A stretch of DNA of 50,038 nt from a virus. Its lineage: Duplodnaviria; Caudoviricetes. How positions within the stretch are numbered: the stretch's first letter is position 1; every line of letters starts with the position of its first letter. Below, in pieces: positions 3,657-40,960 of this stretch. The notes below the pieces were generated by a model. That model saw only the letters and a list, made by a program, of their open reading frames with translations, did no database searches and was not told where the DNA came from. Made by a program: the position numbers and the translations under genes. Location of the stretch: IMG/VR virus record IMGVR_UViG_3300029309_000068, positions 1-50,038 of that record; one strand, given 5' to 3'.

Positions 3657-3659
3657 ATG

Positions 3660-4956: not shown

Positions 4957-4982
4957 AGCGTATAAAACAGTAGGATAACTCT

Positions 4983-7246: not shown

Positions 7247-7247
7247 C

Positions 7248-10200
7248 ATGGCAGGTTATTCAAGACAATCAGCAGCAGATATTATCGCTAATGCGGTTAT
7301 TAAAGCTGCACCAGTAAACGCAGAGTATAATGCTTTACGAGATGCATTTGCTTTAGCTACTGGGCATAAACATGATGGTAGCTCCACTGAAGGTGGATAC
7401 GTACCTTTGATAGCTGATAGTGATGCACTAAATAAAGTTGTAATAGATACATCTAACAATCGTATAGGTTTCTTTAGTGAGGTATCTTCTGCTGCAGTAG
7501 AGCAAATACGTATTCAAGATGGTGCCATACTTCCTGTAACTGATAATGATATTGACCTTGGTACATCAACACTACAATTTAAAGATCTGTACATTGATGG
7601 TGTAGGTTATTTAGACTCCGTAGATATAGATGGCGGTTCAATAGATGGAGTAACAATAGGTGGGTCTTCTGCAGGGGCAGGAACATTTTCATCTTTAGTT
7701 GCTACTACAGCAGATATAAATGCAGGTACTATTGACAACGTAGTTATAGGTGGTAGCACAGCATCATCAGGTAGTTTTACCACAGTAGCAACATCAAGTA
7801 ATGCTACAGTAGGAGGCACACTTGGCGTTACAGGTAATGTTACTATGGGTGGCACACTTGCTGTAACTGGTACGTCTAGTTTTACAGGAGCAGCAACCCT
7901 TACATCTGTTGACATTAATTCAGGAGCAATGGATAATACTACTATTGGTAGTTCTACTGCAGCAGCAGGTAGCTTTACTACTTTAAGTGCTTCAGGTACT
8001 TCTACATTAACTACTGTTGATATTAATGGTGGCGCAATTGATGGTGTCACTATAGGTGCAGCCTCTGCAGGTGCAGGTACATTTACAGATGTAACAGCTT
8101 CTGGAACAACTACAATAACAACTGCAGACATAAATGGCGGTAATATAGATGGTACAACTATTGGTGCTTCTAGTGCTGCAGCAGGTAGCTTTACAACTGT
8201 ATCGACATCTGGACAAGCTACATTGGCAAGCGTTGATGTTAACGGTGGTAATATTGACGGGGCTATTATCGGTGCGTCAAGTGCTGCTGCTATAACAGGT
8301 ACAACTATTACAGCAAGCTCTGGTTTTGTCGGAGATTTGACAGGTAATATTACAGGAGATATAGATGGTGACATCACAGGAAATATTACTGGTAATGTTA
8401 CAGGTAACGTAACAGCTAATTCTGGTGCATCTACATTTAATAATGTAACAGTCAACGGAACACTGGACGTTACAGGTACAACAATTGCTAACGTTACAGA
8501 TCCTAGCAATGCACAGGATGCTGCTACAAAAAATTATGTTGACACAGAAGTAGCGGCACTTGTTGACTCTGCCCCAGGTACACTAGACACACTAAACGAA
8601 CTAGCTGCAGCCCTGAATGATGATCCAAACTTCTCTACAACTATTACAAACTCTATAGCTACCAAGCTACCGCTTGCAGGTGGTACAATGTCTGGTGCTA
8701 TAGCAATGGGTACAAACAAGATTACAGGCTTGGGTGATCCAACAGCTAACCAAGATGCAGCAACCAAGAAGTATACAACAGACACATTCTTACCGTTAGC
8801 AGGTGGTACTGTTACAGGTGCGATAGACATGGGCAGTAACAAAATAACTGCTAGTTATACGCCAAGTGCAAACACTGACCTCGCAACAAAAATATATGTC
8901 GATAATATTGCAGGGTCTGGAACCGCAGCCGCTGCTTCTGCAACTGCTGCTGCTTCAAGTGCAACAGCCGCTGCCTCCAGTGCTACTGCTGCAGCTTCAT
9001 CTGCAACAGGAGCAGCTTCTAGTGCAACCTCTGCAGCAGCTAGCTTTGATTCGTTTGATGACAGATACCTTGGCGCAAAGTCATCAGCACCCTCTACGGA
9101 CAACGATGGAGATGCTCTTCAGGTAGGAACTCTCTATTTTAATACTACTACAAACTCTATGCAGGTTTATGGTGGTTCTGGTTTTACTGCAGCAGGTTCA
9201 TCTGTGAACGGAACTTCAGATCGTAACACTTATACAGCCACTGCAGGTCAAACTACCTTTGCAGCTACATATGATTCAGGTTTTGTAGATGTTTATCTTA
9301 ACGGTGTAAAACTACTAGCAGGTACAGACTTTACAGCTACAAATGGTACTTCAATTGTATTAGCCTCTGGTGCTGCAGTAAATGATATAGTAGACATTGT
9401 AGCCTATGGTACATTCACACTATCTACTCATTATACTAAAACAGAAGCTGATGCCCTTTTAGCTGCTAAACAACCTTACCACACCATAGCCGTTACTGTT
9501 CAAAACGTTGGTGGTGCTAACAAGTACTTTCTTGATGGAACGCAGCAGCAGACTGCACTACTACAAAAGTCTGTGACTATAAGATTTGATCAAAGTGACA
9601 GCAGTAACTCTAACCACCCTCTAAGACTGTCAGAAACTTCAAACGGTACTCATGGTGGTGGTAGTGCATTTACTACAGGTGTAACCGCAGTAGGCACTCC
9701 AGGTTCTGCAGGAGCGTACACACAGGTAACTCTTGAGCAAGATGCACCAGATGTGTTGTACTACTACTGTACCAACCATTCAGCTATGGGCGCAACTGTA
9801 TATAGCGGAAAAGACTTTAGTACACTAACCTCTACAGTAGCTGAGTTAAACATTTTAGATGGGGTTACATCAACAGCAGCAGAGCTTAATATACTTGACG
9901 GTGTAACTGCGACAGCTACTGAATTAAATTATGTTGATGGTGTTACGTCTAATGTACAAACTCAGTTAGATGCTAAACTACCTTTATCAGGTGGTACGCT
10001 TACTGGCGCAATAACAGGTACAACCGCTACTTTTACAACTTCTGATAACAGTGCACAACTTAACCTTACATCTACAGATACTGATGCTAATAATGGTCCA
10101 AGACTTGTACTACAAAGAAACAGTAGCAGTCCTGCTGATAATGATGTTTTAGGACAAATTGAATGGTATGGTGAAAACGATGCTTCTGAAGCTATTGAAC

Positions 10201-11510
10201 AAGCAAAAATTACCGTAACCGCTATTGATGTAACTGATGGATCAGAAGACTCAGCTTTAAATATAACTACAAAAATAAACTCTTCTACTAAAAGTAGAAT
10301 CTATATGCCACCAACTGAAACTGTGTTTAATGAAGAAAGTGTTGACGTAGACTTCCGTGTTGAAAGCAATGGCAATGCTAACATGCTATTCGTTGATGGT
10401 GGAAATGATCGTGTTGGCATTGGGACGAGTTCGCCTAACGCCACTCTCACTCTATCTGACGGAACAGATGAGTTTGATTTTGGCGTTACGACTAACTTAT
10501 TAATGATAAAAACTGTTACCTCAGATGGCTCTGATGACCAAAGAATTATTCTTGATGCAGGAAATGGAGGTCAATCTTCTTCAAGAGGGGCATATATAGC
10601 ACTCTCAGGAAATGAAGCATCTTCTAATGGAGGACAAGCCATTTATCAAATGGGTAATGTGTCAGGAGCATCCCACGAATTTAGAAAGGCAGGGGGAACT
10701 TATGCTGCAAGCATAGACAGCTCTGGTAACTTGCTTGTGGGTTCCACTAATACTGCCCCTGCATCAAACAACGTTGATGGTGTATCTTTAAGAGTAAACA
10801 ACAGTTCTCAGTTTTCTAGATCAAACGATCCTGCTTTTGCTGTAAACCGAAAAGGAAACGATGGTGGATTAGCTACGTTTATGAAAGACGGCTCCACTGT
10901 GGGGAGTATTGGGGTTTCTGGTGGAAACAACTTATATATATCAGGAGAAGCAACTAACCACTCTGGACTAACCTTTGCAACAGATTCAGTTTTGCCAACT
11001 CGACAAGGAACGATTACCGACAACATTACTGACCTTGGTCAAAACGGTAACGCATTTAAAGACGCTTACTTTTCAGGCACAGTAATCGCAGGTGGTGCTA
11101 CTATAGATGGTACGCTTGATATTGAGGAGGTATTTGAAAAAGTATTAGTAAATACTAATACAGGTTTTAGCCTTTTCAGTTTTGACATTTTAAGTCAAGG
11201 CGTTTATTTTCTTACTGCCAATCAAGACCAAAACAGAACAATTAATTTTAGAGGGGATGCGTCAACTTCCTTGAATAGTGTTCTTGCAGTAGGTCAGTCT
11301 GTAACTTGCGCAGTTCTTGCTACACAAGGTTCTACAGCATATTACCTCAACGCTTATCAAGTAGATGGATCATCAGTTACACCTAAATGGTCTGGAGGAT
11401 CAGCACCATCAGCAGGTAACGCAAGCAGTATTGACGCTTACTCATTCACGATTATTAAAACAGCAAATGCTACATTCACAGTGTTAGCATCAGTTACACA
11501 GTTCGCATAG
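7248..11510 (+). CDS. Primary tail fibre
   Basis: 1420 aa, G/S/T/A-rich. N-terminal GHKHDG anchor, DINGGxIDG repeats, DAATKxYVD and APGTLDTLNELAAAL fibre motifs, ELNILDGVT repeats. Confidence 0.88.
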   Translation: MAGYSRQSAADIIANAVIKAAPVNAEYNALRDAFALATGHKHDGSSTEGGYVPLIADSDALNKVVIDTSNNRIGFFSEVSSAAVEQIRIQDGAILPVTDNDIDLGTSTLQFKDLYIDGVGYLDSVDIDGGSIDGVTIGGSSAGAGTFSSLVATTADINAGTIDNVVIGGSTASSGSFTTVATSSNATVGGTLGVTGNVTMGGTLAVTGTSSFTGAATLTSVDINSGAMDNTTIGSSTAAAGSFTTLSASGTSTLTTVDINGGAIDGVTIGAASAGAGTFTDVTASGTTTITTADINGGNIDGTTIGASSAAAGSFTTVSTSGQATLASVDVNGGNIDGAIIGASSAAAITGTTITASSGFVGDLTGNITGDIDGDITGNITGNVTGNVTANSGASTFNNVTVNGTLDVTGTTIANVTDPSNAQDAATKNYVDTEVAALVDSAPGTLDTLNELAAALNDDPNFSTTITNSIATKLPLAGGTMSGAIAMGTNKITGLGDPTANQDAATKKYTTDTFLPLAGGTVTGAIDMGSNKITASYTPSANTDLATKIYVDNIAGSGTAAAASATAAASSATAAASSATAAASSATGAASSATSAAASFDSFDDRYLGAKSSAPSTDNDGDALQVGTLYFNTTTNSMQVYGGSGFTAAGSSVNGTSDRNTYTATAGQTTFAATYDSGFVDVYLNGVKLLAGTDFTATNGTSIVLASGAAVNDIVDIVAYGTFTLSTHYTKTEADALLAAKQPYHTIAVTVQNVGGANKYFLDGTQQQTALLQKSVTIRFDQSDSSNSNHPLRLSETSNGTHGGGSAFTTGVTAVGTPGSAGAYTQVTLEQDAPDVLYYYCTNHSAMGATVYSGKDFSTLTSTVAELNILDGVTSTAAELNILDGVTATATELNYVDGVTSNVQTQLDAKLPLSGGTLTGAITGTTATFTTSDNSAQLNLTSTDTDANNGPRLVLQRNSSSPADNDVLGQIEWYGENDASEAIEQAKITVTAIDVTDGSEDSALNITTKINSSTKSRIYMPPTETVFNEESVDVDFRVESNGNANMLFVDGGNDRVGIGTSSPNATLTLSDGTDEFDFGVTTNLLMIKTVTSDGSDDQRIILDAGNGGQSSSRGAYIALSGNEASSNGGQAIYQMGNVSGASHEFRKAGGTYAASIDSSGNLLVGSTNTAPASNNVDGVSLRVNNSSQFSRSNDPAFAVNRKGNDGGLATFMKDGSTVGSIGVSGGNNLYISGEATNHSGLTFATDSVLPTRQGTITDNITDLGQNGNAFKDAYFSGTVIAGGATIDGTLDIEEVFEKVLVNTNTGFSLFSFDILSQGVYFLTANQDQNRTINFRGDASTSLNSVLAVGQSVTCAVLATQGSTAYYLNAYQVDGSSVTPKWSGGSAPSAGNASSIDAYSFTIIKTANATFTVLASVTQFA
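8923..9041 (+). repeat. Coding low-complexity repeat (AAASSAT)n
   Basis: About five imperfect 21-nt units within the fibre gene. Confidence 0.7.
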
Positions 11511-11519: not shown

Positions 11520-13535
11520 ATGCCTTTACTTTCAACATTTGGTGCAGCTTCAGCTAGAAGTTTTGGCGGCATTGGTGGAGCAGCAGCAGGTGCAGGTCTT
11601 GATATTACAGACGCTTTCTCAACATTTTTGTATCAGGGAACAGGGTCTGCACAATCCATAAATAACGGTATTGATCTTAGTGGTGAAGGTGGTTTGGTTT
11701 GGATTAAAAGTAACCAATCAAGAGCTCATGCTTTATTTGACACAGAAAGAGGCGTGGGTAAGGTTCTAATTACAGCCGAAACTGCTGCTCAAGCTAATAC
11801 GGCAAACGCTTTAACTGCATTTAACTCAAATGGTTTTTCTTTAGGAATAGATGATTCTGATCTCGTAAATAAAAACTCTTCTGGTAATAGAATGGTAGCT
11901 TGGACATTTCGCAAAGCCTCTAAGTTTTTTGATGTTGTGACGTATACTGGAAATGGATCATCTAGAACCATAAGTCATAATCTTGGATCAGTTCCAGGTA
12001 TGATAATAATAAAAAGCACGACTAGTCAAGAAGATTGGGTGGTATATCATAGATCATTGGGTGGCGGTTATTATTCAAAACTACAAGACACAGCTCAATT
12101 CCTTGGCGTAAACACTAGCGTGTTTAATGGAACGGATGCTACTAATTCCGTTTTTAGTGTTGGCACAAGCAGTAAAAGTAATGGATCGGGTCAAACCTAC
12201 GTAGCCTACGTATTCGCACACAACAACAGTGACGGTGGGTTCGGCCCTGATAGTGACCAAGATATTATTAAGTGTGGGAGTTATACTGGGAATAATTCAT
12301 TAACTGGCCCTAGTGTTAATCTTGGGTTTGAGCCTCAGTTTGTTTTGTTAAAACGTGCAACTAGTGGTGCTGGCTCTTGGTTTATGATGGATGCTATGCG
12401 TGGTATTACATCAGGAATTACAAACGGTGATAAATACTTTCAAACAAATTATAGTGTTTCAGAGCAACAAGATAACTTTATTAAACTTACAGCAAATGGT
12501 TTTGATGTTGAGTCAACTAATAGCGCTATTAATAACTCTGGTGACACCTACATCTTCATGGCAATTAGACGTGGTTCACTAGCTGTACCAGATGATGCGA
12601 CTAAGGTTTTTGATGTTGAAATAGGTGGTTCTTCTGTTGCCGATAATGCATTGGCTACAACAACAGGTTTTCCAGTAGATATGTTTATGCACTATGATAA
12701 CTATTCAAGTGGTGGTGAAACTTTTGTTGTTGATCGGCTGCGAGGAAGAAGTGCGCAAGTTCGCACACAAGTTACAAACGCAGAGGGAACTTATAGCACA
12801 AACAATCCAAGCTTAGATAGTAATTCAGGTTTAATTAATAGAGCAGGGTCTACTAAAAATTTAAGCGGAGGTGTATATTGGCAGTGGAAGCGTGCTCTTG
12901 GCTATTTCGATGTGGTTGCTTACACAGGAAACGGAACAGCAGGTACAAGCATAAATCACAATCTTGGTGTAGTGCCAGAAATGATCTGGTTAAGAGGTCG
13001 TAATGCTGTTAGTAACTGGTTTGTATATCACAAGGATCTTAACGGTGGTACAAATCCAGAAGATTATCATCTTAGAATAAACACATCAGGCGCTGAAAAT
13101 AACGCAACCACATCATTGAATGATACTGCCCCAACTGCATCTAGTTTTTCAACAGGAACTGCATTGAGTACAAGCGGTAACACCTACATAGCCTACCTTT
13201 TCGCTACCGTAGCAGGTGTATCCAAGGTGGGAAGCTATACTGGAAATGGTGAGTCAGTGGTTCAGACTATTGATTGTGGCTTTAGTAGTGGTGCTAGGTT
13301 TGTGCTGATTAAAAAAAGCAGCAGCACTGGTAACTGGATTGTTTACGATGCTGAAAGAGGTATTAGCACAGCAACAAGTGACGGTGTTTTGTTATTAAAT
13401 AGCGGTGATGCAGAAAGTCCTGAGTCCTCGTTTTTTGCGGGGAACGCAATGCAGCCTGACTCTTCTGGCTTTAAAGTTACTACTGATGATTTGAATAGAT
13501 CAGGTAACACCTACATATTCTACGCAATCGCATAG
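11520..13535 (+). CDS. Fibre-tip adhesin-like protein, copy 1
   Basis: 671 aa, internally duplicated (FDVVxYTGNG, HNLGxVPxMI, YIAYLFA, YIFxAI). Paralogous to 15484..17490. Confidence 0.7.
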   Translation: MPLLSTFGAASARSFGGIGGAAAGAGLDITDAFSTFLYQGTGSAQSINNGIDLSGEGGLVWIKSNQSRAHALFDTERGVGKVLITAETAAQANTANALTAFNSNGFSLGIDDSDLVNKNSSGNRMVAWTFRKASKFFDVVTYTGNGSSRTISHNLGSVPGMIIIKSTTSQEDWVVYHRSLGGGYYSKLQDTAQFLGVNTSVFNGTDATNSVFSVGTSSKSNGSGQTYVAYVFAHNNSDGGFGPDSDQDIIKCGSYTGNNSLTGPSVNLGFEPQFVLLKRATSGAGSWFMMDAMRGITSGITNGDKYFQTNYSVSEQQDNFIKLTANGFDVESTNSAINNSGDTYIFMAIRRGSLAVPDDATKVFDVEIGGSSVADNALATTTGFPVDMFMHYDNYSSGGETFVVDRLRGRSAQVRTQVTNAEGTYSTNNPSLDSNSGLINRAGSTKNLSGGVYWQWKRALGYFDVVAYTGNGTAGTSINHNLGVVPEMIWLRGRNAVSNWFVYHKDLNGGTNPEDYHLRINTSGAENNATTSLNDTAPTASSFSTGTALSTSGNTYIAYLFATVAGVSKVGSYTGNGESVVQTIDCGFSSGARFVLIKKSSSTGNWIVYDAERGISTATSDGVLLLNSGDAESPESSFFAGNAMQPDSSGFKVTTDDLNRSGNTYIFYAIA

Positions 13536-13599
13536 CACAAATTGGAATTAGTTCATGCCGAACTGATATTAGAACCATAACATAAAGGAGAATGGTACA

Positions 13600-13818
13600 A
13601 TGGGAAAAGATAAAAAGACCCCAATCACTATCAACGACAAAGAGTATATCGTAGAGGATATGACTCCAGAACAACGAACAATGGTCAACCATATTGCTGA
13701 CCTAGAAAGAAAGCTTAACACCGCACAGTTCAATATGGATCAGTTACGTGTAGGCAGAGATGCATTTGTAAATTTACTAACTGCAAAACTAGCAGAAGAG
13801 GAAAAAGAGGCTGCATAG
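13600..13818 (+). CDS. Small coiled-coil protein, possible fibre chaperone
   Basis: 72 aa, SD AAGGAG, ITINDKEY start typical of genes that follow fibres. Confidence 0.6.
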   Translation: MGKDKKTPITINDKEYIVEDMTPEQRTMVNHIADLERKLNTAQFNMDQLRVGRDAFVNLLTAKLAEEEKEAA

Positions 13819-13845
13819 CAGTCTAACTTGAAAGGACTTTAACTT

Positions 13846-15474
13846 ATGACTAGAGCAAGAGATTTAGCTGACTATATTTCAACAGGTGTTTCAGACACTG
13901 AGCTTGATGTATTGGACGGTGTTACAGCAGGTACTGTTACAGCATCTAAGGCTCTAGTCGTAGATGCAAACAAAGATGTAGCAAGTCTTAGAAATATTAC
14001 AGCAACAGGAACTATTACTGGTAATGTAACTGGAGATGTAACTGGAGATGTAACAGGAGATGTTACTGGTAATGTGTCAGGATCATCTGGTTCTACAACA
14101 GGTAATGCTGCTACTGCAACTGCCCTTGCAACAGCTAGAAATATAGGTGGTGTGTCTTTTGATGGTACTGGAAATATAAACTTACCAGGAGTTAATACAT
14201 CAGGTAATCAGGATACATCTGGTAACGCAGCCACTGCAACAACAGCAGGTACAGTTACAACTGCTGCACAAACTAACATCACATCACTAGGTACACTAAC
14301 GACTCTCACTGTAGATGACATTACAATAAACGGCTCAACTATATCAGATGCTGCTGATTTTACCATAGATGTTGGTGGTAATATTACACTTGATGGCGAT
14401 GATGGAGGCCAAGTAAGATTTAAAGACGGTGGAACAGAATACTTATCAATATATAACTCTAGTTCAGATGCTATATTTCAAACTCAAGTTTCAGATAAAG
14501 ATATTCTTTTCAAAGGCAACGATGGTGGTTCTGTAATAACCGCCCTCACACTAGACATGTCAGATGCAGGGTCTGCTAGTTTTAACCATGATATAAAATT
14601 AAGTGATAATAGCAAAGCAATCTTTGGCGCAGGGTCTGACCTACAGATTTATCACGATGGTTCTCATAGCTATATTGATGAAGCTGGCACAGGCGATTTA
14701 AGGATTCGTGCGGAAGGTAATCTTACTCTTAGCGATATGTCAAACAGGGTTTACCTAACAGGTGCATCTCAAGGTGCAGTTCATCTAAGGTTTAATGATA
14801 GCAACAAACTCGCCACCACCGCAAATGGAATTAACGTAACAGGTGATGTAGTTGTTACTAATGATATTTATGTTTCAAATGACCTATTACATCAAGGAGA
14901 TAGCGATACAAAGATATCGTTTGGTACTGATACTATTACATTACTCACAGGCGGCACTACAAGATTACTAGCAAACAACTCTGGAATAAGTCTTAATAAC
15001 GAGCCTTTGCAAAATGTTGAAGATATTTATGTTAATGACAAAATTTTTCACAATGGTGACAGTGATACCTATATCCAATTTAGTACAGACACTATTCAAC
15101 TTTATGCTGGTGGTTCGTATGCTCAGTTTAGTTCTGGCATGTTCTTACTTAATGACGGTTCTCTTGGAGAGGATTACGATGCTTTATCAGGAACATCGCC
15201 AACAATTAATGTTAGTAATGGTGGTATGTTTAGTCTTAGTATGTCAGGCAACACCACCTTTACGTTCAGTGGTGCATCTAGCGGATACAGCCAAGGTTTT
15301 ATTCTTCAGCTAACTGGAAACGGTGGCACGGTCACATATCCGAATACTGTTGATTTTGCTGGCGGTACTGCTCCCGATGCACCAGCGAACGGAGAAACTG
15401 ATATACTTGTTTTTGTTACAAGAGATGGCGGTAGTAACTGGTATGGCGCACTAGCAGTAGACGCAGCAGCATAG
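13846..15474 (+). CDS. Secondary tail fibre
   Basis: MTRARDLAD N-terminus, GDVT repeats, ATALATARNIGGVSFDG and FGAGSDLQIYHDG fibre motifs, GGTAP C-terminal domain. Confidence 0.82.
   Translation: MTRARDLADYISTGVSDTELDVLDGVTAGTVTASKALVVDANKDVASLRNITATGTITGNVTGDVTGDVTGDVTGNVSGSSGSTTGNAATATALATARNIGGVSFDGTGNINLPGVNTSGNQDTSGNAATATTAGTVTTAAQTNITSLGTLTTLTVDDITINGSTISDAADFTIDVGGNITLDGDDGGQVRFKDGGTEYLSIYNSSSDAIFQTQVSDKDILFKGNDGGSVITALTLDMSDAGSASFNHDIKLSDNSKAIFGAGSDLQIYHDGSHSYIDEAGTGDLRIRAEGNLTLSDMSNRVYLTGASQGAVHLRFNDSNKLATTANGINVTGDVVVTNDIYVSNDLLHQGDSDTKISFGTDTITLLTGGTTRLLANNSGISLNNEPLQNVEDIYVNDKIFHNGDSDTYIQFSTDTIQLYAGGSYAQFSSGMFLLNDGSLGEDYDALSGTSPTINVSNGGMFSLSMSGNTTFTFSGASSGYSQGFILQLTGNGGTVTYPNTVDFAGGTAPDAPANGETDILVFVTRDGGSNWYGALAVDAAA
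14019..14075 (+). repeat. 12-nt coding tandem repeat (TGDV/TGNV)
   Basis: ACTGGAGATGTA-like units, about five copies. Confidence 0.6.
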
Positions 15475-15483
15475 GAATAATTT

Positions 15484-17490
15484 ATGGCAAGTCCAAGAGT
15501 AAAACAAACGTTAATGGCTGCTGCTGGTGCGGCTGGTGGTGGTCTTGATGTAGACGAGGTGTTCAGCACGTTTTTGCACACTGGAACAGGTTCTGCACAA
15601 ACGATTGCCAACGGCATTGATCTTACTGAAGGTGGTCTAGTTTGGATTAAAGATAGAGACTCGGGATCAAGAGCACATTATTTATTTGATTCAGAAAATC
15701 TTGCTGCTCCTAATTACAATCAGTATTTAAGTTCTAATGATACAGATGCAATTTATTCTGCGTCTGGTACTGGTAACGGACTAGGAGGTGCTTTTACTAG
15801 CAATGGTTTTCCAGTGCAAGGTAATCATAGTTCATCAGGTCAAGATTACGTCTCTTGGACATTTCGCAAAGCCCCTAAGTTTTTTGATGTAGTTACATAT
15901 TCTGGAGATGGAAACTCTACAAAAACTATCAGTCATAGTCTTGGATGTCAGGCAGGAATGATTTGGGTAAAGCGGTTGGATAGTTCTAATAACTGGTGTG
16001 TTTGGCATAGAGATCAATATAGTTATGGAGGTAATTCTTACGAAGGTCGTTTAGAAAGCAATATTGAATTTGGATATAATACTTTTGATGGAGCATCTTC
16101 AACAACCTTTACAGTTAAAAATGACACAGGTGTAAATGCAAGTGGTGGTTCATATGTTGCTTATGTTTTTGCCCATAATAATAATGATGGTGGGTTTGGC
16201 CCTACTTCAGATCAAGATATTATTAAATGTGGAAGATATACTGGAAATGGATCTAACAATGGGCCTGAGATTGACTTAGGATTTGAACCTCAATTTCTTT
16301 TGGTAAAACGTACAGATGGAACAGGTAATTGGATCACGGTAGATAGCATGAGAAATTTTGGTAGCGGTGTAAATAGTGCTTATCTTTATGTAAATGGTAA
16401 TAATTCTGAATTTAACGATTACGAATTATTTAGAAATCAGTCACAGGGTTTTCAACCCAGACAAAACTTTAGTGTAATAAATGGAAATAATGCTAATTAT
16501 ATTTATATGGCAATAAGGCGTGGCCCAATGGCTACACCTGAAAATGCGACTGATGTATTTAAGGTAGATAAAACTGCATCTAGCTCAAACCCTGCCTATA
16601 CAAGTGGTTTCCCTGTAGATATGGGGTTGGAAAGACGAACTGTAAACGGTGGAAATTGGTCAATATCTTCTAGATTAACGCATGGAAGATTTTTGTCTAG
16701 TCAAAGCAATGATCAAGAATCTGTTGATCCTGAAATGGATTTTGATTATATGACTGGTTGGCAAGAGCAAGGCTACGCTCTTAACGATCAAGTTGCATGG
16801 ATGTGGAAAAGAGCACCAGGTTATTTTGATGTAGTCTGTTATACAGGAGGAGGTGATGCAACCTCAACACACACCAAAAAACACAATCTTGGTGTTGCAC
16901 CTGAAATGCTTTGGGTTAAATGTAGATCAAATAATGGTACTAATTGGATGGTTTGGCACAAAGACATGAATTATAGCACTGGTGAAAGCTATACGAATAA
17001 AGCATTTATGAATTTAAATAATAGTAATGCAGCAACTTTATCATCTAACTATTGGTCATACAGTGGTAATCCACAAATGACAGATTCAGTTTTTTCTGTG
17101 GGTAGTACTTATGACGAAGTAAACGCCACTAACCGAACTTACATAGCTTACCTATTTGCAAGTGTATCTGGTGTATCTAAGGTAGGGGCTTACTCAGGAA
17201 ATGGGGGAACATCAGCAAACGGTAACGGTCAAGACATTGATTGTGGCTTTAGTAATGGTGCTAGATTTGTTTTAATTAAGCCAAGTAATGCAGGTGATCA
17301 CTGGTTTTTGTTTGACAGTGAAAGAGGCATTGTTGCAGGTAATGATGCAACTCTCTTGTTAAATGATAATGCAGGGGAAAGCTCAAGTTCAGATGAAATA
17401 GACCCATTAAATTCAGGTTTTAGGGTGCTTAACCAAAACAATCAACTTAACAGAACAGGGCGTAATTACATTTTTTACGCAATTGCATAA
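15484..17490 (+). CDS. Fibre-tip adhesin-like protein, copy 2
   Basis: 668 aa, collinear paralogue of 11520..13535; both end in YIFYAIA. Confidence 0.7.
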   Translation: MASPRVKQTLMAAAGAAGGGLDVDEVFSTFLHTGTGSAQTIANGIDLTEGGLVWIKDRDSGSRAHYLFDSENLAAPNYNQYLSSNDTDAIYSASGTGNGLGGAFTSNGFPVQGNHSSSGQDYVSWTFRKAPKFFDVVTYSGDGNSTKTISHSLGCQAGMIWVKRLDSSNNWCVWHRDQYSYGGNSYEGRLESNIEFGYNTFDGASSTTFTVKNDTGVNASGGSYVAYVFAHNNNDGGFGPTSDQDIIKCGRYTGNGSNNGPEIDLGFEPQFLLVKRTDGTGNWITVDSMRNFGSGVNSAYLYVNGNNSEFNDYELFRNQSQGFQPRQNFSVINGNNANYIYMAIRRGPMATPENATDVFKVDKTASSSNPAYTSGFPVDMGLERRTVNGGNWSISSRLTHGRFLSSQSNDQESVDPEMDFDYMTGWQEQGYALNDQVAWMWKRAPGYFDVVCYTGGGDATSTHTKKHNLGVAPEMLWVKCRSNNGTNWMVWHKDMNYSTGESYTNKAFMNLNNSNAATLSSNYWSYSGNPQMTDSVFSVGSTYDEVNATNRTYIAYLFASVSGVSKVGAYSGNGGTSANGNGQDIDCGFSNGARFVLIKPSNAGDHWFLFDSERGIVAGNDATLLLNDNAGESSSSDEIDPLNSGFRVLNQNNQLNRTGRNYIFYAIA

Positions 17491-17517
17491 TAAAACTCAT
17501 AAAAAAGGATTAATCTA

Positions 17518-18012
17518 ATGAGTGAGTATAGGGACCGTACAAGCGGTGAAATCAAAACAAAAGATCAACTAAAGCAAGAAAACATAAACATGTCGATGCC
17601 GAAGGTTTGGAACGAGATGACCTTCGATGCGCTAAACGTAGATCCTATTCTTGCTGCACCAAAGCCAACAGAGGGTATTGGGCAATATCAGGTTGTTTCT
17701 CGTAATGGTGCAGTACAAGATGCCAACGACAACTGGGTGGAAGCTTGGGAAATTGTTGACATGTTTGTTGATATTGAAGGTGGGCAAACTAAAGCAGAAC
17801 AAGAGACAGCATATCAGGATAGATTAGACATTGAAGCAGCAGAACTTAATCGTAATCAACGAAATAATTTACTCTCTAATACAGATTGGTGGGCAGTATC
17901 AGACAGAACAATGACATCTGAGCAAACTACTTATCGTACTGCTTTACGAGATTTACCAACACATTCTAACTGGCCTCATTTAGAAGCTGACGATTGGCCT
18001 ACTAAGCCTTGA
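17518..18012 (+). CDS. Tail fibre assembly chaperone
   Basis: C-terminal RNxLLxxTDW...YRxALRDLP...WPTKP signature. Confidence 0.82.
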   Translation: MSEYRDRTSGEIKTKDQLKQENINMSMPKVWNEMTFDALNVDPILAAPKPTEGIGQYQVVSRNGAVQDANDNWVEAWEIVDMFVDIEGGQTKAEQETAYQDRLDIEAAELNRNQRNNLLSNTDWWAVSDRTMTSEQTTYRTALRDLPTHSNWPHLEADDWPTKP

Positions 18013-18018
18013 TAAAAC

Positions 18019-18047
18019 TTGACATTTTAACATTTGTGAGTTAAACT
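18019..18047 (+). promoter_or_regulatory. Putative promoter TTGACA-N16-TTAAACT
   Basis: Matches the recurrent phage promoter architecture. Confidence 0.6.
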
Positions 18048-18302
18048 ATGAGTGACATCAAACTCTCCCCAGAAGAACTAGAAGAGATGCTAGATAACGC
18101 AGCTAGGCGTGGTGCTAAAGAGGCACTACGTTCTATTGGGCTACTTGATGATGATGCACAAAAAGATATACTAGAGATGCGTAACTTGATAGAAGCGTGG
18201 AGAGATACACGTAGATCAATATGGTCTACAGTAGTTAAATTAGCTACCGTTGGAGTCCTGACATTTATTGCAGGTGCGGTATGGATGACAATGGGAAAGT
18301 AA
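18048..18302 (+). CDS. Small membrane protein (DUF6127-like)
   Basis: AARRGAxxALxxxGLxD..A..DI.E.R.L..AWR pattern plus a C-terminal TM helix; family recalled from alphaproteobacterial phages and GTAs. Confidence 0.65.
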   Translation: MSDIKLSPEELEEMLDNAARRGAKEALRSIGLLDDDAQKDILEMRNLIEAWRDTRRSIWSTVVKLATVGVLTFIAGAVWMTMGK

Positions 18303-18312
18303 GGAATAGAGT

Positions 18313-21300
18313 ATGGCAGTAACTTTTAATAAAGGTGAAGTAGTAACAGATGTATACGGCAACACTAGAACTCTTTCTGGTAGTTATTCAGATAGAAGAG
18401 ATGTTGTAAATGCAATTGAAAGAGAAAAAGCTCTGTTAAACGCTGCCCAAACTGGTGACTACTCTGGTCTTATTGGTCCAATTAAAGATAAGGAAGATAG
18501 GGAAAGAGCAGGAGAAATTAAATTTGCAGCAGAGCAAATACTTAAAAAAACTAATGCTCTTCAAGGTGTTCAAACTGGTGACTATAGTAATGCTAGTAAA
18601 GATGCGCCTATGTTGTATGATACTAACACAAACTATGAAAGAACTCTAGGTAGTGGTTCTCCTGATACAGCTACAGGGGGTAAAACCTCTTCTAATAAAG
18701 GGTATGCTGTTTATGGCAGTGTTACAGATGCAAATGGTGATCAATATGTAGCTGTATCTGGTAAAAACTCTAGCTTTATTAATAAAATAAGTGCTGATGG
18801 AACTGTTGAAAGAGTATCAAAACCACCTGCAAAAAAAGGGAAAAGAAATACTAATGTAAACAGAGTTCTTGGAGCTTTTGAGGCTTTAAAAGCAACACTA
18901 GATTTAAGCGAAGGTGGAGGTGATGAAACACCTGTTGATGAAACACCTGTTGATGAATTGCCAGTTGATGAATTGCCAGTTGATGAGACACCAGTTGATG
19001 AGACACCAGTTGATGAAATACTGACAGGGTTCGAACAACCTGTAGACTCTAGTGTAGCAGGTGGTGGTTTTGAACCTGTGATACCAGATACAACAGTACA
19101 ACAAGTACCTGCAGGTGGTGTTGCTACTATTGACCCCAATAGACCTCAGACTGTAGTACAACAAGTATCCCCTGTAACTTATCAAGATGTTGTTCCTACT
19201 GGAACAATGACACCTGTAGGTCAAGTAGATCCTACAACAGGCACAGTATCTACACCAACACAAACAGGTGGCATGTCTGCTGTGCCTCAACAAGTATCAT
19301 ACAAGACACACTATGCAGGTACACAAGGTGCAGTACCACAAACACTTGTAACTACTCAGCCAGGAACAGGTGCTGCGTATCCTGCAGTATTTCAGGGATA
19401 CCAAACTGTACCTTATGGTAATGATTTAGGACAAAGAATAATGATTACTGAATTTAATGGTGTACCTACAACATATGTACCTCCAGGTTTTTTTAAAATA
19501 ACTAAAGAAACAGAGACTACAGGCGCTGCAGAAGGTGGCTTAATGGAGAATATGACTTTAGAAGGTAAAGACCGTATCTTCCGAAAGATGGGTTACAATG
19601 GTCCTAAGACACGAGAAGGTCATGCCAAGTTTGAGGAAGCTAACCCTGCTGCTAAAGCTAAAGGTCTTGCCATAGGTGGTTACATACAGAAGTTTAGTCA
19701 AGGTGGTGCGGTAAGAGCTTTTAATGAAGGTGGTGACACTACTGATGTTAAAAACTTTACATCAGCAGACTTAGCTGAAATGCAGAAGAGGGCTGTACAA
19801 CAAACGATGCAACCCATGCAAGCTACTACAGCCATGATACAACCTACTGCTGCTGATTTCATTCCAGTAGATGCAGGGATGACTGTACCCATAGCTCCTT
19901 TTGCTGAGGCCGCTACAGTAGGCAATGTACAACAAGCTGTGTTACCAACTGCTCCTGCTACAAATATTGCAGGTGTTACTACTGTTGCACCTCAAGTAGC
20001 TACAGAAGCTGCAAAGCTACAAGCTGCTACAGGAGAGCCTACACAACAGATCACTGCACAACAGCAAATAGGTACATCCATCACAGGTATGGAAGCTGCT
20101 CAAGGTAACGCTATAAAAGTAGATAGCCCTACAGCTAGAAAGTTAGAAACAGATCCTGTATCAGGTGAAAGTGAAATAATATCTGGTGCTGCTAATGCAC
20201 AAACTGCTGCTGCATTTACTGAAGCAGTAGACGCTGCAGAAGCTACACCAAGTAAACAAGCAACAGTTGCAGGTCAGCTAGAAAAACTAATGGCTGACTT
20301 TGAGGGTGGTGAGACACCTGCTTGGGCTGCAGGATCTATGCGTACTGCGATGGCTACATTAGCTGCTCGTGGTTTAGGTGCGTCTAGTCTTGCAGGTCAA
20401 GCTGTCATACAAGCTGCAATGGAAGCGGCACTACCTATCGCTCAGATGGATGCTTCTACTGTAGCACAGTTTGAAATGACTAATCTATCCAACAGACAGC
20501 AAAGACAAATGCTTGCTGCACAGCAACGTGCTACATTCATGGGTATGGAGTTTGATCAAGCATTCCAAGCTCGTGTAGCTAACTCTGCTCGTATCGGTGA
20601 CATTGCTAACATGAACTTCACGGCTGAACAACAGATAGCTTTAGAAGACTCTCGTGCAGCAAACACCATGAATCTTAGCAACTTGTCTAACTCACAGGCA
20701 ATGATAATGGCTGAGGCTGCTGCTCTGTCACAACTAGACATGGCTAACTTGTCAAACAGACAACAGGCTGCTGTACAGAATGCATCTAACTTCTTACAGA
20801 TGGATATGGCTAATCTGTCTAATGAACAACAGACTGCTATATTTAAATCACAACAAAACATACAGGCTTTGTTTACAGATCAAGCTGCTGAGAATGCTGC
20901 TGCACAGTTTAACGCTACGAGTGAGAATCAGACTGATCAGTTCTTTGCTAACTTAGCTAACCAAACCTCACAGTTTAATGCTACACAACAGAATGCTATG
21001 GATCAGTTCAACGTCAATAGTGTCAATGCATTGCGTGAGTTTAACTCAGAGCTACAACAACAGCGTGACATTTTCAATGCACAGAACGGATTAGTGATAG
21101 CACAATCTAATGCAGCATGGAGACAAAGCATAGCTACCGTAAACACAGCTACACAGAACCAAAGCAACATGGACTTTGCTAAAACTATCAATGCCCTTAC
21201 TGCATCTAACATGGATCAGATATGGCAACGAGAGCGAGACATTATGAGTTTTGCATTCGCTGCTTCTGAGAGTGCTGCAGACAGAGCCAACAGTATTGCA

Positions 21301-21408
21301 GTAGCAAAACTTACAGCAGATGCACAGGCTGAGGTAGCGGATAATGTAGGTAAAGGTAAAATAGGAGCTTTAGTAGTAGATAGTTTCTTGAAGAAGTGGT
21401 TAGGTTAA
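18313..21408 (+). CDS. Putative internal virion (ejection) protein
   Basis: 1031 aa with a long A/Q/N-rich helical C-terminal half (NLSNRQQ repeats). Confidence 0.65.
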   Translation: MAVTFNKGEVVTDVYGNTRTLSGSYSDRRDVVNAIEREKALLNAAQTGDYSGLIGPIKDKEDRERAGEIKFAAEQILKKTNALQGVQTGDYSNASKDAPMLYDTNTNYERTLGSGSPDTATGGKTSSNKGYAVYGSVTDANGDQYVAVSGKNSSFINKISADGTVERVSKPPAKKGKRNTNVNRVLGAFEALKATLDLSEGGGDETPVDETPVDELPVDELPVDETPVDETPVDEILTGFEQPVDSSVAGGGFEPVIPDTTVQQVPAGGVATIDPNRPQTVVQQVSPVTYQDVVPTGTMTPVGQVDPTTGTVSTPTQTGGMSAVPQQVSYKTHYAGTQGAVPQTLVTTQPGTGAAYPAVFQGYQTVPYGNDLGQRIMITEFNGVPTTYVPPGFFKITKETETTGAAEGGLMENMTLEGKDRIFRKMGYNGPKTREGHAKFEEANPAAKAKGLAIGGYIQKFSQGGAVRAFNEGGDTTDVKNFTSADLAEMQKRAVQQTMQPMQATTAMIQPTAADFIPVDAGMTVPIAPFAEAATVGNVQQAVLPTAPATNIAGVTTVAPQVATEAAKLQAATGEPTQQITAQQQIGTSITGMEAAQGNAIKVDSPTARKLETDPVSGESEIISGAANAQTAAAFTEAVDAAEATPSKQATVAGQLEKLMADFEGGETPAWAAGSMRTAMATLAARGLGASSLAGQAVIQAAMEAALPIAQMDASTVAQFEMTNLSNRQQRQMLAAQQRATFMGMEFDQAFQARVANSARIGDIANMNFTAEQQIALEDSRAANTMNLSNLSNSQAMIMAEAAALSQLDMANLSNRQQAAVQNASNFLQMDMANLSNEQQTAIFKSQQNIQALFTDQAAENAAAQFNATSENQTDQFFANLANQTSQFNATQQNAMDQFNVNSVNALREFNSELQQQRDIFNAQNGLVIAQSNAAWRQSIATVNTATQNQSNMDFAKTINALTASNMDQIWQRERDIMSFAFAASESAADRANSIAVAKLTADAQAEVADNVGKGKIGALVVDSFLKKWLG
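18922..19017 (+). repeat. 15-nt coding tandem repeat (DETPV/DELPV) x6.4
   Basis: GATGAAACACCTGTT x2, GATGAATTGCCAGTT x2, GATGAGACACCAGTT x2. Confidence 0.92.
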
Positions 21409-32635: not shown

Positions 32636-32967
32636 GCGCTTCCCTTTGTCTTTGTCCACTTGTTAAGTGTATATACATTACCCTCTCTTGTTACAACAGG
32701 TTTTTCATCCTCTGCATCCATAGCTACAAGATAATCTCTGTGCTCTTTGACTAGCTGATAAATATCTGGATGTTCATTTGCTATATCTAAAAATGCTGAC
32801 ATCATAGTTGCTACATCTACTATACCGTTGATGATAGGATCAGGTAAGTTATGCTCAGGTGATATTGCTATAGACACATTTGTTTCACCCTCCCAACTAC
32901 CATCATCCTTGTAGTCTACTGGGCTTATAACTATTGCTATTTCATCATTGTCTAAGTCGTGACCCAT
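32632..32967 (-). CDS. Hypothetical protein
   Basis: 111-aa ORF coupled to its neighbours. Confidence 0.7.
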   Translation of the reverse strand: MGHDLDNDEIAIVISPVDYKDDGSWEGETNVSIAISPEHNLPDPIINGIVDVATMMSAFLDIANEHPDIYQLVKEHRDYLVAMDAEDEKPVVTREGNVYTLNKWTKTKGSA

Positions 32968-33386
32968 TAGTCTTTCCTTTTTGTTTTTAATTCTATCTTC
33001 TTAACTGTAATCTCTTTACCTTTTTCTTTCAGCCAATCTTCAGGTATCACACGATTAGCCCACCGAAACTTATATCGCTCACACCAATGACAATACCTAG
33101 ACTTAGCACCCTTATATAGCTTGGCGTTTGCGTTACTGAAAACAAACCGTATGTCTAGCTCAGGATGCTGTCTCTGTATCTCACGATGCTTACGTCTGTC
33201 GGCACTATCAAAGATACCTTTAGTCTCAATAATGATACCATTGTCTAAAATAAAATCAGGAGTGTAAGTACGGTAACGTAGATCCTCCCATTCTATCTTG
33301 AGCACTTCATATCTAACTTTTGTTTGTTTCTTCCTTAGATAAGAAGCGATATTTTTTTCTAGGCCACTACGATATTTTATAGCCAT
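32967..33386 (-). CDS. Endonuclease I (T7 gp3-like Holliday junction resolvase)
   Basis: YRSGLE, YTPDF, IIETKG, DRRKH and DIRFVF. Confidence 0.92.
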   Translation of the reverse strand: MAIKYRSGLEKNIASYLRKKQTKVRYEVLKIEWEDLRYRTYTPDFILDNGIIIETKGIFDSADRRKHREIQRQHPELDIRFVFSNANAKLYKGAKSRYCHWCERYKFRWANRVIPEDWLKEKGKEITVKKIELKTKRKD

Positions 33387-34147
33387 TTAGGTAAATCAAT
33401 AACGCTGTAGTTACCCCACCCTGTTCCATAATCTAAAGAAAGATCAGCGAAAGCTATTTGATCTAGTGTGTCATGCATACGCTTCTTAGCGTTATTCAAC
33501 AGGTCTGAACTGACTACATGCATGTGTGAAACATAAGGACTAGATTTTTCACAAGCTATAAAAGAAAACTCTTTGACTTCAATACCTGCTAATTCTATTA
33601 CGTATTTGTAAAACGCTGCCTGAATATCGTATGCGTATTTAAAACACTCTTTAGAAAAACCTGAAGGAGAAGCATCTATGGTTGTTTTAACATCATAGAC
33701 TGCACCCTCTTCGGTTATCATAAGGTCTGGTCTTGTCTTTAATTCTAGTCCTGATCTAGGACATCTTTCAAAAATACTAACTTCGTTAACTCTATCTTTG
33801 TGTCTTAGTGCTTTACCACATTTGTTATTTTCCAAAGCAGACTTAGCCATCTTGTGTGCCATATAATATTCTGCTTCACTAAGAAGAATCTGATCTTCCT
33901 GTAATTCTTTTTCTAGCTCTTTAAAAGCTTTAGATGTTTTAGTTTTTGGACCCTTTACAACTAGGTCTTTATCTTCTTCTAAGAGTAATGCATGAACTGC
34001 ACTACCTAAATTAAAAGCTGACGATTGTTTTTGTTTTTGCCCTCTCCAGTGTGCTAGTGATTTTTTATATACTGTCTTGACTGCCGAAGAAGAGATACCA
34101 CTCATTGAATGATACCTCGTATTCGATAAGTCTTTGATTACACCCAT
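33377..34147 (-). CDS. Exonuclease VIII / RecE-like PD-(D/E)XK nuclease
   Basis: YH..GISSS, GSAVHALLLE, KTRPD, DVKTT and YDIQAAFY. Confidence 0.85.
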   Translation of the reverse strand: MGVIKDLSNTRYHSMSGISSSAVKTVYKKSLAHWRGQKQKQSSAFNLGSAVHALLLEEDKDLVVKGPKTKTSKAFKELEKELQEDQILLSEAEYYMAHKMAKSALENNKCGKALRHKDRVNEVSIFERCPRSGLELKTRPDLMITEEGAVYDVKTTIDASPSGFSKECFKYAYDIQAAFYKYVIELAGIEVKEFSFIACEKSSPYVSHMHVVSSDLLNNAKKRMHDTLDQIAFADLSLDYGTGWGNYSVIDLPKWL

Positions 34148-39241: not shown

Positions 39242-40029
39242 TAAACTATCTCCTCTAGTTTCTTAATGTCTGCATCTACTTTGTATTTAATATCATCATA
39301 GAGTCTTAACGCTATAGTTTCTAACCCTGTGTAAGCCTCTATCTCTCTCTTGTACTCTAGTGTTTTATATGCAGCGTCAGGGTCTAATGCTACAATAACC
39401 TTATAAAAATTATCTAAGTGTTGCATATTAGATACACTGAATGATGTACCCAATATAGCCAAACCTGTTAGCCCAGGAAATAGTTTAGCTGCTACGGTAG
39501 CACTAATAACATCCTCAACTACTATCACCACACCACTGGGTTTACCTACAACACGAGTGAATACAGTGGGTGTTTTGTCATAACGCCTCCATTTAACTTG
39601 CCCTGCATAAGATGTACACCTACCTATCGCTCCTACAAGTCTGCCTTTGTCATAGATAGGGAAGACTACTCGTGAGTCCATCACATCATACATCAAGTCT
39701 TCACCATACAAGCCCCACCTACCAATGAATCTCTCAAACTGCTTATGCTCTACAGTAGGCTTGACTATATACTCAGGCCAAGTAAATAACTCATGCTCCG
39801 ACTCAGGCTCTTCATACTGATTAAGCCTACGTTGTATCTCTTGGGCTGTCATACCTGATGACACAACACCTTTAACTCTACAGTCAAGCTTGTAACAATT
39901 GTAAAGCAGAGCACTACCATCTCGTGTAGCAGTGAACGTGTTCTTACCTCTACACACAGGGCAGTCACCTCTATGTCTGTAATCCTCTTTTAGATCAAGG
40001 GCTTCTAGGTAGTTCTTAATGTTGTTCAT
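39241..40029 (-). CDS. DNA primase (zinc-binding plus TOPRIM domains)
   Basis: CPVC...CYKLDC, RVVFPI, VVED, LGT, LDPDA and DIK. Confidence 0.9.
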   Translation of the reverse strand: MNNIKNYLEALDLKEDYRHRGDCPVCRGKNTFTATRDGSALLYNCYKLDCRVKGVVSSGMTAQEIQRRLNQYEEPESEHELFTWPEYIVKPTVEHKQFERFIGRWGLYGEDLMYDVMDSRVVFPIYDKGRLVGAIGRCTSYAGQVKWRRYDKTPTVFTRVVGKPSGVVIVVEDVISATVAAKLFPGLTGLAILGTSFSVSNMQHLDNFYKVIVALDPDAAYKTLEYKREIEAYTGLETIALRLYDDIKYKVDADIKKLEEIV

Positions 40030-40960
40030 CTCTGCTCCTCCGCTTATTCAATGCATTACTTGCGCCACTAAATGTGTTGACAAGGTAAGGCTTGACTGAC
40101 TCAGGATTCACATGCCCTGTTACTTGCATCAACTCAAGAGTCTCAACACCTGCCTCCACCATCTCAGTGATTGCAGTCCTGCGTAGATCCATAGCTGTCA
40201 GTTTCTTTGGTAGTCTTGCAGCTTCCTTGACTTCATTGATTGCATCATCGATGTGGTCAATAGCGTATGGAACGTATGCCCCTGCCACTGGTGTAGTCTT
40301 TGGTGCTACATAGTCTTGAAATCCAAAGTCCTGACTCTGTTGTCTGAGCATAGAAAGTAGATCATCAGGTATCGGCAAGTGCACATCAGCACCACGTTTA
40401 CTTTGTGTTAAATCAACACGTTGTGCGCTGAAGTTAATGTTATCCCAAGTCAAGGTACGCATGTCACCAACACGCTGCGCCCACTCGTATGCCATGTGTA
40501 CAATCAATCCAATGCTACGCCACTTGAAGTTACCGTATGCTGTGTCAAGAAAAGATACTACTTGATCACGAGTCCACTTGACCTTGCGTGGCTTAGTGCT
40601 CTTCGTCTTGATCAAACGTACTGGGTCATTGTCCATTACGTCTAACCTCATGCTGTACTTCCATGCCGTAGACAGGACAGCCTTGCGATAGTTAGCTGTG
40701 CGTACACCAGACACAAGCCACTTCTCGTAAGCCAGGTTAGTGTGTCTAGCTTTGATGCTGCGTACTGTGTAGTTACCTAAGAGCCTACCCTCTACGTTAG
40801 TCTTAAGTATTACATCCAAGTGTGTCTCGTAGTCTTTCTGTGACTTAGCACTCAAGTTACGAAAGTTATTGCTGTGTAGATAGAAGTCTACAATAGCTGA
40901 CAACTTCGATGTATGTTTAGGTATGTCTACCACTTTCTCCTCACTTTCCAATATACCCAC
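40016..40960 (-). CDS. int: Tyrosine recombinase / integrase
   Basis: QRVGD (R), QSK (K), MDLRRT, TGH and PY catalytic boxes. Confidence 0.88.
   Translation of the reverse strand: MGILESEEKVVDIPKHTSKLSAIVDFYLHSNNFRNLSAKSQKDYETHLDVILKTNVEGRLLGNYTVRSIKARHTNLAYEKWLVSGVRTANYRKAVLSTAWKYSMRLDVMDNDPVRLIKTKSTKPRKVKWTRDQVVSFLDTAYGNFKWRSIGLIVHMAYEWAQRVGDMRTLTWDNINFSAQRVDLTQSKRGADVHLPIPDDLLSMLRQQSQDFGFQDYVAPKTTPVAGAYVPYAIDHIDDAINEVKEAARLPKKLTAMDLRRTAITEMVEAGVETLELMQVTGHVNPESVKPYLVNTFSGASNALNKRRSRDEQH

Follow-up and report, generated by a model that had tools for sequence, protein, structure and literature searches.

Short near-identical stretches in two tandem, predicted tail-fibre tip genes of a phage probably reflect family-wide motifs

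Two diverged tip genes and the stretches they share

The window analysed here is the whole virus record IMGVR_UViG_3300029309_000068, which measures 50,038 bases and is about 91% complete by estimate. It carries two paralogous genes of the Pfam family DUF7483 (PF24299), here called copy 1 and copy 2, which probably encode receptor-binding tips of tail fibres. They score 361 bits (copy 1) and 255.7 bits (copy 2) against a curated cut-off of 27 bits, and a six-frame search of the record found four DUF7483 domains in total, each with 121.8-207.6 bits. An initial annotation of this DNA had pointed out that both genes diverge strongly and yet share two short, almost identical stretches, and had proposed that these anchors serve a system of cassette swapping between the copies that diversifies receptor binding. 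We found that the anchors exist as described; they are probably conserved strands of a very large family whose codons are shared within a lineage, and diversity would come from recombination between phages. The features that carry the argument are as follows.

11520..13535, + strand: copy 1 (P0001, or P1), predicted tail-fibre tip protein, 671 aa; Pfam PF24299, E 7.5e-108, in two stretches
15484..17490, + strand: copy 2 (P0002, or P2), predicted tail-fibre tip protein, 668 aa; Pfam PF24299, E 8.2e-76, in two stretches
11899..11935, + strand: anchor 1 of copy 1, encoding residues 127-139 (AWTFRKASKFFDV); 37 nt with 1 mismatch to 15854-15890
15854..15890, + strand: anchor 1 of copy 2; 37 nt with 1 mismatch to 11899-11935
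13269..13303, + strand: anchor 2 of copy 1, encoding residues 584-595 (IDCGFSSGARFV); 35 nt with 2 mismatches to 17236-17270
17236..17270, + strand: anchor 2 of copy 2; 35 nt with 2 mismatches to 13269-13303

The strong divergence claimed for the paralogues is evident from a protein identity of 49% (312 of 634 aligned residues) and a DNA identity of 56%, with a proportion of synonymous differences (pS) of 0.66 and a synonymous divergence (dS) of 1.6 over the whole genes. The anchors have exactly the coordinates, lengths and mismatches first reported for them, and they do include synonymous positions: all nine degenerate codons of anchor 1 agree between the copies, as do the first eight of anchor 2. 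In a sliding-window check of the kind proposed along with the claim, anchor 1 had the lowest pS (0.12) of 622 windows of 13 codons and anchor 2 a pS of 0.27.

Synonymous identity between the copies showed no significant clustering in a runs test (p = 0.185, and 0.25 for the longest run). This test skips the intervening non-identical residues and replacements and is weak for contiguous tracts, so a shuffle null at the nucleotide level was added, in which synonymous codons are permuted within each gene and the codon usage of the gene is kept, and it reversed the reading that the identity was no more than chance. The longest stretch with at most one mismatch measures 37 nt against a null mean of 21.9 nt (p = 0.001), and two separate stretches of at least 35 nt between the copies have p = 0.00075 under the same null. 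The stretches thus exceed what codon bias alone gives. Over the genes as a whole, identical codons are found at 150 of 297 sites, where 124-134 are expected at saturation (z 1.9-3.2). The motif YVAYVFAHNND (12198-12233 and 16153-16188) has 11 residues identical between the copies and codons that differ at 11 of 11; it is the longest run of synonymous difference between them (p = 0.046, permutation) and speaks against a general homogenisation of motif DNA between the copies.

Within copy 1, the decamer ACACCTACAT recurs near 12544, 13180 and 13507, as had been noted. The accompanying claim of C-ending codons in the conserved blocks did not hold, their share being 18% against 15% in copy 1 (p = 0.34) and 12% against 12% in copy 2; also across the family, NNY codons at conserved sites show no enrichment in C (0.299 against 0.295).

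The anchors across the family and between the copies

Both genes would be old, divergent members of a very large family of tail-fibre tips in marine phages. Searches with copy 1 and copy 2 gave at least 7,985 and at least 7,183 proteins, respectively, at E<=1e-5 among the 8,000 scored per search; a literature search for 'DUF7483' found no paper. The anchors are not confined to this window. At anchor 1, 31 family sequences have in common the peptide SWTFRKxPKFFDV and most of the codons for it. Among 316 pairs of genes from different phages at 40-58% protein identity, stretches of 37 nt or more occur in 6.6%, and in 107 pairs the longest near-identical stretch lies within the anchor-1 columns. 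Furthermore, the shuffle null was beaten at p<=0.05 by nine of 60 inter-phage pairs sampled.

The most telling comparison is with gp41 of the Roseobacter phage CRP-1 (QBQ72450.1, annotated 'hypothetical protein'), which is 46% identical to both copies. With at most one mismatch, it shares up to 48 nt with copy 1 and up to 38 nt with copy 2, and in each case none of 400 shuffles reached the observed value. As equal or longer stretches are thus shared with another genome, the anchors are not specific to the co-resident copies. In agreement, anchor 1 of copy 2, taken over 39 nt, has two differences to gp41 and three to copy 1, and in windows of 12 codons the nearest neighbour at the DNA level is gp41 for either copy (mean rank fraction 0.21 and 0.25), followed by the other copy as second of 62 (0.31). 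We suggest that the anchors encode the most constrained core strands of the family and that the lineage of copy 1, copy 2 and gp41 keeps the same codons there, so that the anchors would be residual or lineage-shared identity. Across the family the synonymous-identity excess at the anchors is small, about +0.09 and +0.04 (both means calculated by us from the values per column), compared with +0.04+-0.11 over 175 conserved columns.

Some codons of anchor 1 are nearly invariant. At 11922-11930 (alignment columns 223-225), the lysine before two phenylalanines is AAG in 22 of 23 cases, AAA being commoner elsewhere; for the second phenylalanine, 29 of 30 family sequences have TTT, and ACA is used in 21 of 27. 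As a speculation, AAG before TTT TTT may avoid a slippery run of the A-AAT-TTT type.

The central proposal of the initial annotation, a cassette-swapping system between the co-resident copies, was not borne out. None of 205 homologues has high-identity blocks of both copies, the copies are strictly mutually nearest in one of 78 DNA windows, and gp41 is closer to each of them than they are to one another. Windows of 20 residues between the motifs are 10-45% identical between the copies, their variable segments never being close. Each copy stands about 100th of 206 in the identity list of the other, and neither is within the other's top 120 relatives. As a test of gene conversion, the window count and the runs test are negative and the shuffle null is exceeded, but the latter also holds against gp41. 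A similar divergence, with 43-50% identity, separates the tandem tip pairs of four other loci (L058, L060, L080 and L040). Informative sites among copy 1, copy 2 and gp41 number 265, 319 and 270, a near star-like pattern with local patches of each pairing, which suggests that the three lineages are themselves mosaic; because of this mosaicism a single tree is unreliable.

No hybrid of the two copies was seen in public sequencing runs, which are kept as contigs, where rare hybrids are invisible; four of these runs contain 85-94% of the words sampled from this phage. A hybrid joined inside the anchors would skip 3,955 or 3,967 nt. None of the 15 joints listed from these runs (49 more exist), with sides of 20-40 nt, skips such a distance. 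The listed joints probably come from relatives matching the conserved motifs, and the peaks of depth in the public runs sit over these motifs.

Mosaic blocks between phages

Between phages, by contrast, the family is mosaic. At the DNA level this is seen in one long segment of copy 1.

12189..13244, + strand: segment of copy 1 at 98-100% DNA identity with contigs L003 and L002, delimited by mismatch positions

The shared segment measures 1,056 bp, with edges at 12188/12189 and 13244/13245; outside it, the tip gene of L003/L002 is about 55% identical to copy 1 as DNA up to 12188 and about 60% from 13245. Its edges fall where GQTYVAY begins and directly behind GSYTG, two conserved motifs of which neither is an anchor. 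L003 and L002, from one metagenome, represent a different phage: the remaining genes of these contigs show no relation to those of the window or are ordered differently, with a terminase gene 3.7 kb upstream of the fibre gene, and their chaperone has 52% identity. Two short public contigs would agree with an occurrence of this cassette in other surroundings, X8 record 25 (996 nt, covering 12609-12888 with 6 differences) and X5 record 2 (694 nt, covering 12596-12928 with 16 differences). At the linker between the two DUF7483 domains, 12566-12592 has 11 mismatches in 27 nt to L003 and looks like a very short replaced tract.

At the protein level, high-identity blocks are shared with copy 1 in 19 of 205 homologues (22 blocks) and with copy 2 in 12 of 205 (15 blocks). 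For example, P0124-P0126, which are 72-76% identical to copy 2 overall, are 20-60% identical to it over the first ~230 residues, ~60-90% up to ~290 and mostly at least 90% from there on. The whole family was then scanned all against all (207 proteins), keeping only blocks with 15 or more matched variable columns, a filter that was added because a first version was confounded by blocks of conserved motifs alone. This left 149 of 1,235 blocks, in 120 pairs, with 44 unique boundaries. Conservation over the five residues inside the edge averages 0.729 at these boundaries against 0.536+-0.035 for random breakpoints (p<1e-4), and 29 of the 44 reach a conservation of 0.7, as against 30% under the null. 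The enrichment held in 27 of 27 parameter settings and also against a null with identical extension rule and flank filter (0.546+-0.035). The boundaries cluster at copy-1 residues 126-147 (the anchor-1 region), 234-273, 345-366, 454-488 and 556-573, with single boundaries at 592 and 598 (the anchor-2 region) and elsewhere. Of the two anchors, the first thus lies in a region of clustered boundaries, and both DNA-level junctions lie outside the anchors.

The clusters bracket the borders of the sub-domains that can be read from the predicted structure. An AlphaFold2 model of copy 1, made with 126 aligned sequences, is all-beta (mean predicted local distance difference test, pLDDT, 89.0; predicted template modelling score, pTM, 0.87). 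The aligned ranges of the structure search suggest sub-domains at ~28-132, 133-234, 246-352, 457-561 and 562-671, and a sixth may occupy 364-456; each tip protein would accordingly comprise two DUF7483 domains and about six beta-sandwich sub-domains. In this model, anchor 1 (residues 127-139) lies on predicted strands 124-131 and 137-143, and anchor 2 (residues 584-595) on 582-585 and 594-599. Fold searches gave no clear relative (three Foldseek hits at E<=0.001, all of low TM-score; best VIA-align Z 6.1), the best predicted-structure matches being other DUF7483 proteins. Lectin-type beta-sandwiches and those of phage baseplates came out as weakly similar (Z at most 6.1), and a search of solved structures by sequence found nothing for P0001 or for P0003, the fibre protein encoded upstream of copy 2. 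The gene position, the PHROG labels for the families of both copies ('tail fiber protein' or 'virion structural protein') and the weak lectin likeness suggest that the copies are receptor-binding tips of tail fibres.

The N-terminus of copy 1 stands apart. Residues 1-28 (11520-11603) are modelled with low confidence, with a pLDDT under 50 at residues 1-23, and these 28 residues are 96-97% identical in P0078 and P0082, proteins that elsewhere are ~48% identical. This fits a separately exchanged docking peptide.

In our judgement the anchors are likely to be conserved strands of the family with lineage-shared codons, and the diversity of the tips to stem from recombination between phages and not from an intragenomic swap system. 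Ordinary recombination between co-infecting phages would swap blocks of the size of sub-domains, and the junctions that survive would fall preferentially in conserved motifs at sub-domain borders. We infer that such exchange takes place during co-infection and makes use of the phage's own exonuclease and endonuclease. The junction pattern may reflect either crossover in the longest shared DNA or the survival of hybrids joined at the borders of the fold. In this sense, the initial observation is real, and its wider idea, that recombination at conserved motifs diversifies a receptor-binding gene, is partly supported: it stands at the level of the family, as mosaicism between phages with edges enriched at motifs including the anchor-1 region, and not as exchange between the two copies. 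A bolder proposal, tentative and in our view somewhat more doubtful than credible, is that the DUF7483 tips of HMO-2011-type and related podoviruses, which are abundant in the ocean, trade whole sub-domains between otherwise unrelated phages, with conserved border strands, the anchor-1 motif among them, as crossover sites, and so build a combinatorial repertoire of receptor binding; co-resident copies would persist only if their identity does not exceed ~37 nt, which would protect the tandem from deletion.

Several results weigh against the explanation by family strands and inter-phage exchange. The 37-nt stretch is longer than the shuffle null allows. Copy 1 and copy 2 are mutually closest at anchor 2, with three differences against at least five for any other of the 29 sequences compared (the alignment has 31, two partial contigs each being without one anchor). 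In the 20-codon window 11697-11756, 20 informative sites join the two copies and 5 and 5 support the other groupings. The best tree does not place the copies as sisters, yet a clade of both is not rejected (p-AU 0.136). The excess over the null, the closeness at anchor 2 and the patch at 11697-11756 together make some past exchange between the copies possible. On the side of the mosaics, the DNA-level evidence consists of two metagenome contigs, and the rest is at the protein level, because P0004-P0216 were compared as proteins only. L002 and L003 both end inside the shared segment, so that a chimeric assembly at a conserved motif is possible, and the boundary test on blocks shared with copy 1 or copy 2 alone was not significant (p 0.34-0.82, n=10-21). 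Also the role in receptor binding comes from gene context and family labels.

The same observations bear on the other explanations. That the co-resident copies exchange cassettes by homologous recombination or gene conversion initiated at the anchors, aided by the RecE-like exonuclease and a partner, would agree with the excess over the saturated null for one and for two stretches, with the closeness at anchor 2 and the patch just described, and with the presence of exonuclease VIII-like and endonuclease I genes in the phage; moreover, judged from the coordinates, both anchors have the same codon phase in both genes, so that a crossover there would be in frame. We nevertheless regard it as unlikely, given the equal or longer stretches with gp41, the nearest DNA neighbour of both copies, the 11 differing codons of YVAYVFAHNND, the runs test, the single mutually nearest window, the lack of blocks from both copies in any homologue, the equal divergence of the other four tandem pairs and the low identity of the variable windows. 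Pure chance, with low-degeneracy conserved peptides and a genome-wide codon bias sufficing to produce the anchors, accords with the number of identical codons over the whole genes, with the composition of anchor 1, which is rich in W, F, K and D, and with the small family-wide synonymous excess at the anchor columns; it is quite improbable in view of the two shuffle-null results and of the same excess against gp41. Finally, selection on the nucleotide sequence of the motif itself, for translation accuracy or speed, avoidance of slippery runs or an RNA feature, might have fixed the synonymous sites, and the nearly fixed codons of anchor 1 (AAG 22/23, TTT 29/30, ACA 21/27) would fit it. Neighbouring columns of the motif vary freely (TTC 17 against TTT 11; AAA 20 against AAG 9), though, and conserved sites show no excess of C-ending or preferred codons, which makes this the case in which we place very little belief.

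Fibre modules, recombination genes and known systems

The two tips are part of a tandem of two fibre modules, each made of a fibre gene and a tip gene, with a single assembly chaperone gene after the second. The same-strand genes between 7248 and 18012 are the 1420-aa fibre, copy 1, a 72-aa open reading frame (ORF), the 542-aa fibre, copy 2 and a 164-aa gene. These neighbours and the genes of recombination enzymes are listed here.

7248..11510, + strand: fibre gene of module 1, 1420 aa; PHROG tail-fiber families (phrog_38058, E 2.9e-26, and others)
13600..13818, + strand: small ORF between the modules, 72 aa; phrog_21153 (unknown function), E 1.5e-18, and without Pfam match
13846..15474, + strand: fibre gene of module 2 (P0003), 542 aa; PHROG families, best phrog_6722, E 2.1e-19
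17518..18012, + strand: tail-fibre assembly chaperone-like gene, 164 aa; Pfam PF16778 Phage_tail_APC, E 7.7e-10; PHROG tail fiber assembly
32967..33386, - strand: phage endonuclease I; Pfam PF05367, E 3.8e-47
33377..34147, - strand: RecE-like PD-(D/E)XK exonuclease; phrog_412 exonuclease VIII, E 1e-55; Pfam DUF3799/PDDEXK_1
40016..40960: tyrosine integrase, among replication genes; the sole recombinase found

P0003 matches 15 PHROG families, nine of them in the tail category (eight 'tail fiber protein', one 'tail protein'). The tandem layout was confirmed by a second assembly, L045, which matches 13206-18935 at 99.98%. Among 50,697 phage records, the best DNA matches are the Roseobacter phages CRP-1, CRP-13 and CRP-4. 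The structural neighbour genes are 62-82% identical to those of CRP-1 in conserved order (fibre, tip, chaperone): the 1420-aa fibre protein is 72% identical over 739 aa to gp43 ('putative tail fiber protein'), and the chaperone-like protein 62% identical to gp40. CRP-1 is an HMO-2011-type podovirus (PMC6918029), and by structural gene content and order the phage studied here appears to belong to the CRP-1 subgroup of these marine podoviruses. The module gp43-gp40 of CRP-1 has the same family and the same fibre-tip-chaperone order, with one tip gene, gp41, in place of two tandem modules. The tip gene is likewise single in 39 of the first 40 related loci, and tandem tip genes are found also in L058, L060, L080 and L040.

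Both fibre genes contain a 12-nt periodic repeat, corresponding to a four-residue unit of the G-x-x-T type, at 8331-8428 and 13996-14082. The conserved fibre motif after the repeat (~14004-14241) has DNA matches to tail-fibre genes of cyanophages and of Acinetobacter, Aeromonas and Escherichia phages.

The initial annotation had suggested that the swapping was possibly served by a RecE-like exonuclease and an adjacent ssDNA protein. The exonuclease is indeed present (33377-34147); it provides a context for recombination, and its action on the fibre genes is putative. The 289-aa ORF beside it matched neither Pfam nor PHROG families, so that the second label was not confirmed, and its Atlas matches were all viral clusters without a name, in which a minority of proteins have PF23977 or PF19247. 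The Pfam and PHROG scans identified neither a recombinase nor an annealing protein as a possible partner of the exonuclease. For the integrase, PMC6918029 gives integration at a tRNA-Met gene for CRP-3 and an unknown site for CRP-1 and CRP-2.

Diversity-generating retroelements (DGRs), as in Bordetella phage BPP-1, diversify a phage receptor-binding protein and need a reverse transcriptase and a pair of template and variable repeats. The receptor-binding target is shared with the present case, and the rest is not: no reverse transcriptase was found among the ORFs scanned (some under 130 aa were not scanned), nor a direct repeat of the template/variable kind in the window. Invertible tail-fibre segments, as with Mu Gin and P1 Cin, need inverted repeats and an invertase. 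Alternative fibre ends in one genome are a trait that the present case shares with them; here both copies stand on the same strand, and the window has no usable inverted repeats, its only two inverted pairs being of 29-34 nt, 76-79% complementary and ~24-25 kb apart. The initial statement that neither a reverse transcriptase nor an invertase is at work agrees with these scans, in which neither enzyme and no invertible segment was found.

A closer parallel is gp38, the adhesin of the gp37/gp38 distal fibre locus of T-even phages. Its hypervariable segments alternate with conserved glycine-rich motifs, and these motifs have been proposed to be hot spots of recombination for a modular shuffling that changes host recognition (PMC12032242, citing Tetart et al. 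1998). The DUF7483 tips likewise alternate conserved motifs and variable segments, with block edges enriched at the motifs. Unlike gp38, both copies gave PF24299 alone in the Pfam scan, with no gp38 family, and they are predicted to fold into a chain of beta-sandwiches; exchange concerns entire sub-domains of ~100 residues, as against the short loops of gp38, and the hosts are marine Alphaproteobacteria. By sequence homology, then, the copies are not gp38-type proteins, and the junctions in conserved motifs resemble its modular shuffling: the likeness appears to be one of logic and not of family, to a known kind of process. Relaxed homologous recombination by lambda Red and Rad52-like recombinases has been put forward as a source of phage mosaicism (PMC2327257, PMC3945230). 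Exchange between diverged sequences at short identity is common to that model and the present case, and the phage carries nuclease genes of its own; unlike those systems, it has no recombinase or annealing protein identified.

Modular exchange has precedents among phage tail fibres, from which the present case differs in family, fold and unit size. Hosts of HMO-2011-type phages include SAR116 and RCA roseobacters. If the tips, which probably set host range, are made of exchangeable sub-domains, host range would be more fluid than genome similarity suggests, and read recruitment to tip genes would mix different phages. The sub-domain map and the junction positions may provide a starting point for work on structure and host range with the cultivable CRP phages. 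Furthermore, short near-identical stretches between divergent paralogues should be compared with homologues from other genomes before an intragenomic exchange is inferred.

Other repeats were observed in the window and in a related locus. Downstream of the chaperone gene, a 1031-aa gene (18313-21408), which has neither a Pfam nor a PHROG match, contains at 18903-19037 a 15-nt unit repeated seven times in tandem, encoding a five-residue acidic repeat. Near the end of the record, at 49771-50016, a 30-nt unit occurs six times with a spacing of 30-84 nt; each unit corresponds to a decapeptide rich in lysine and glycine, and four of the six start with ATG and two with AAA (lysine). In L040, a three-gene module (263, 444 and 344 aa) is tandemly duplicated (263, 445 and 353 aa) at 2657-9026; protein identity between the copies is 43-45%, and in either copy the final gene has a single DUF7483-like domain.

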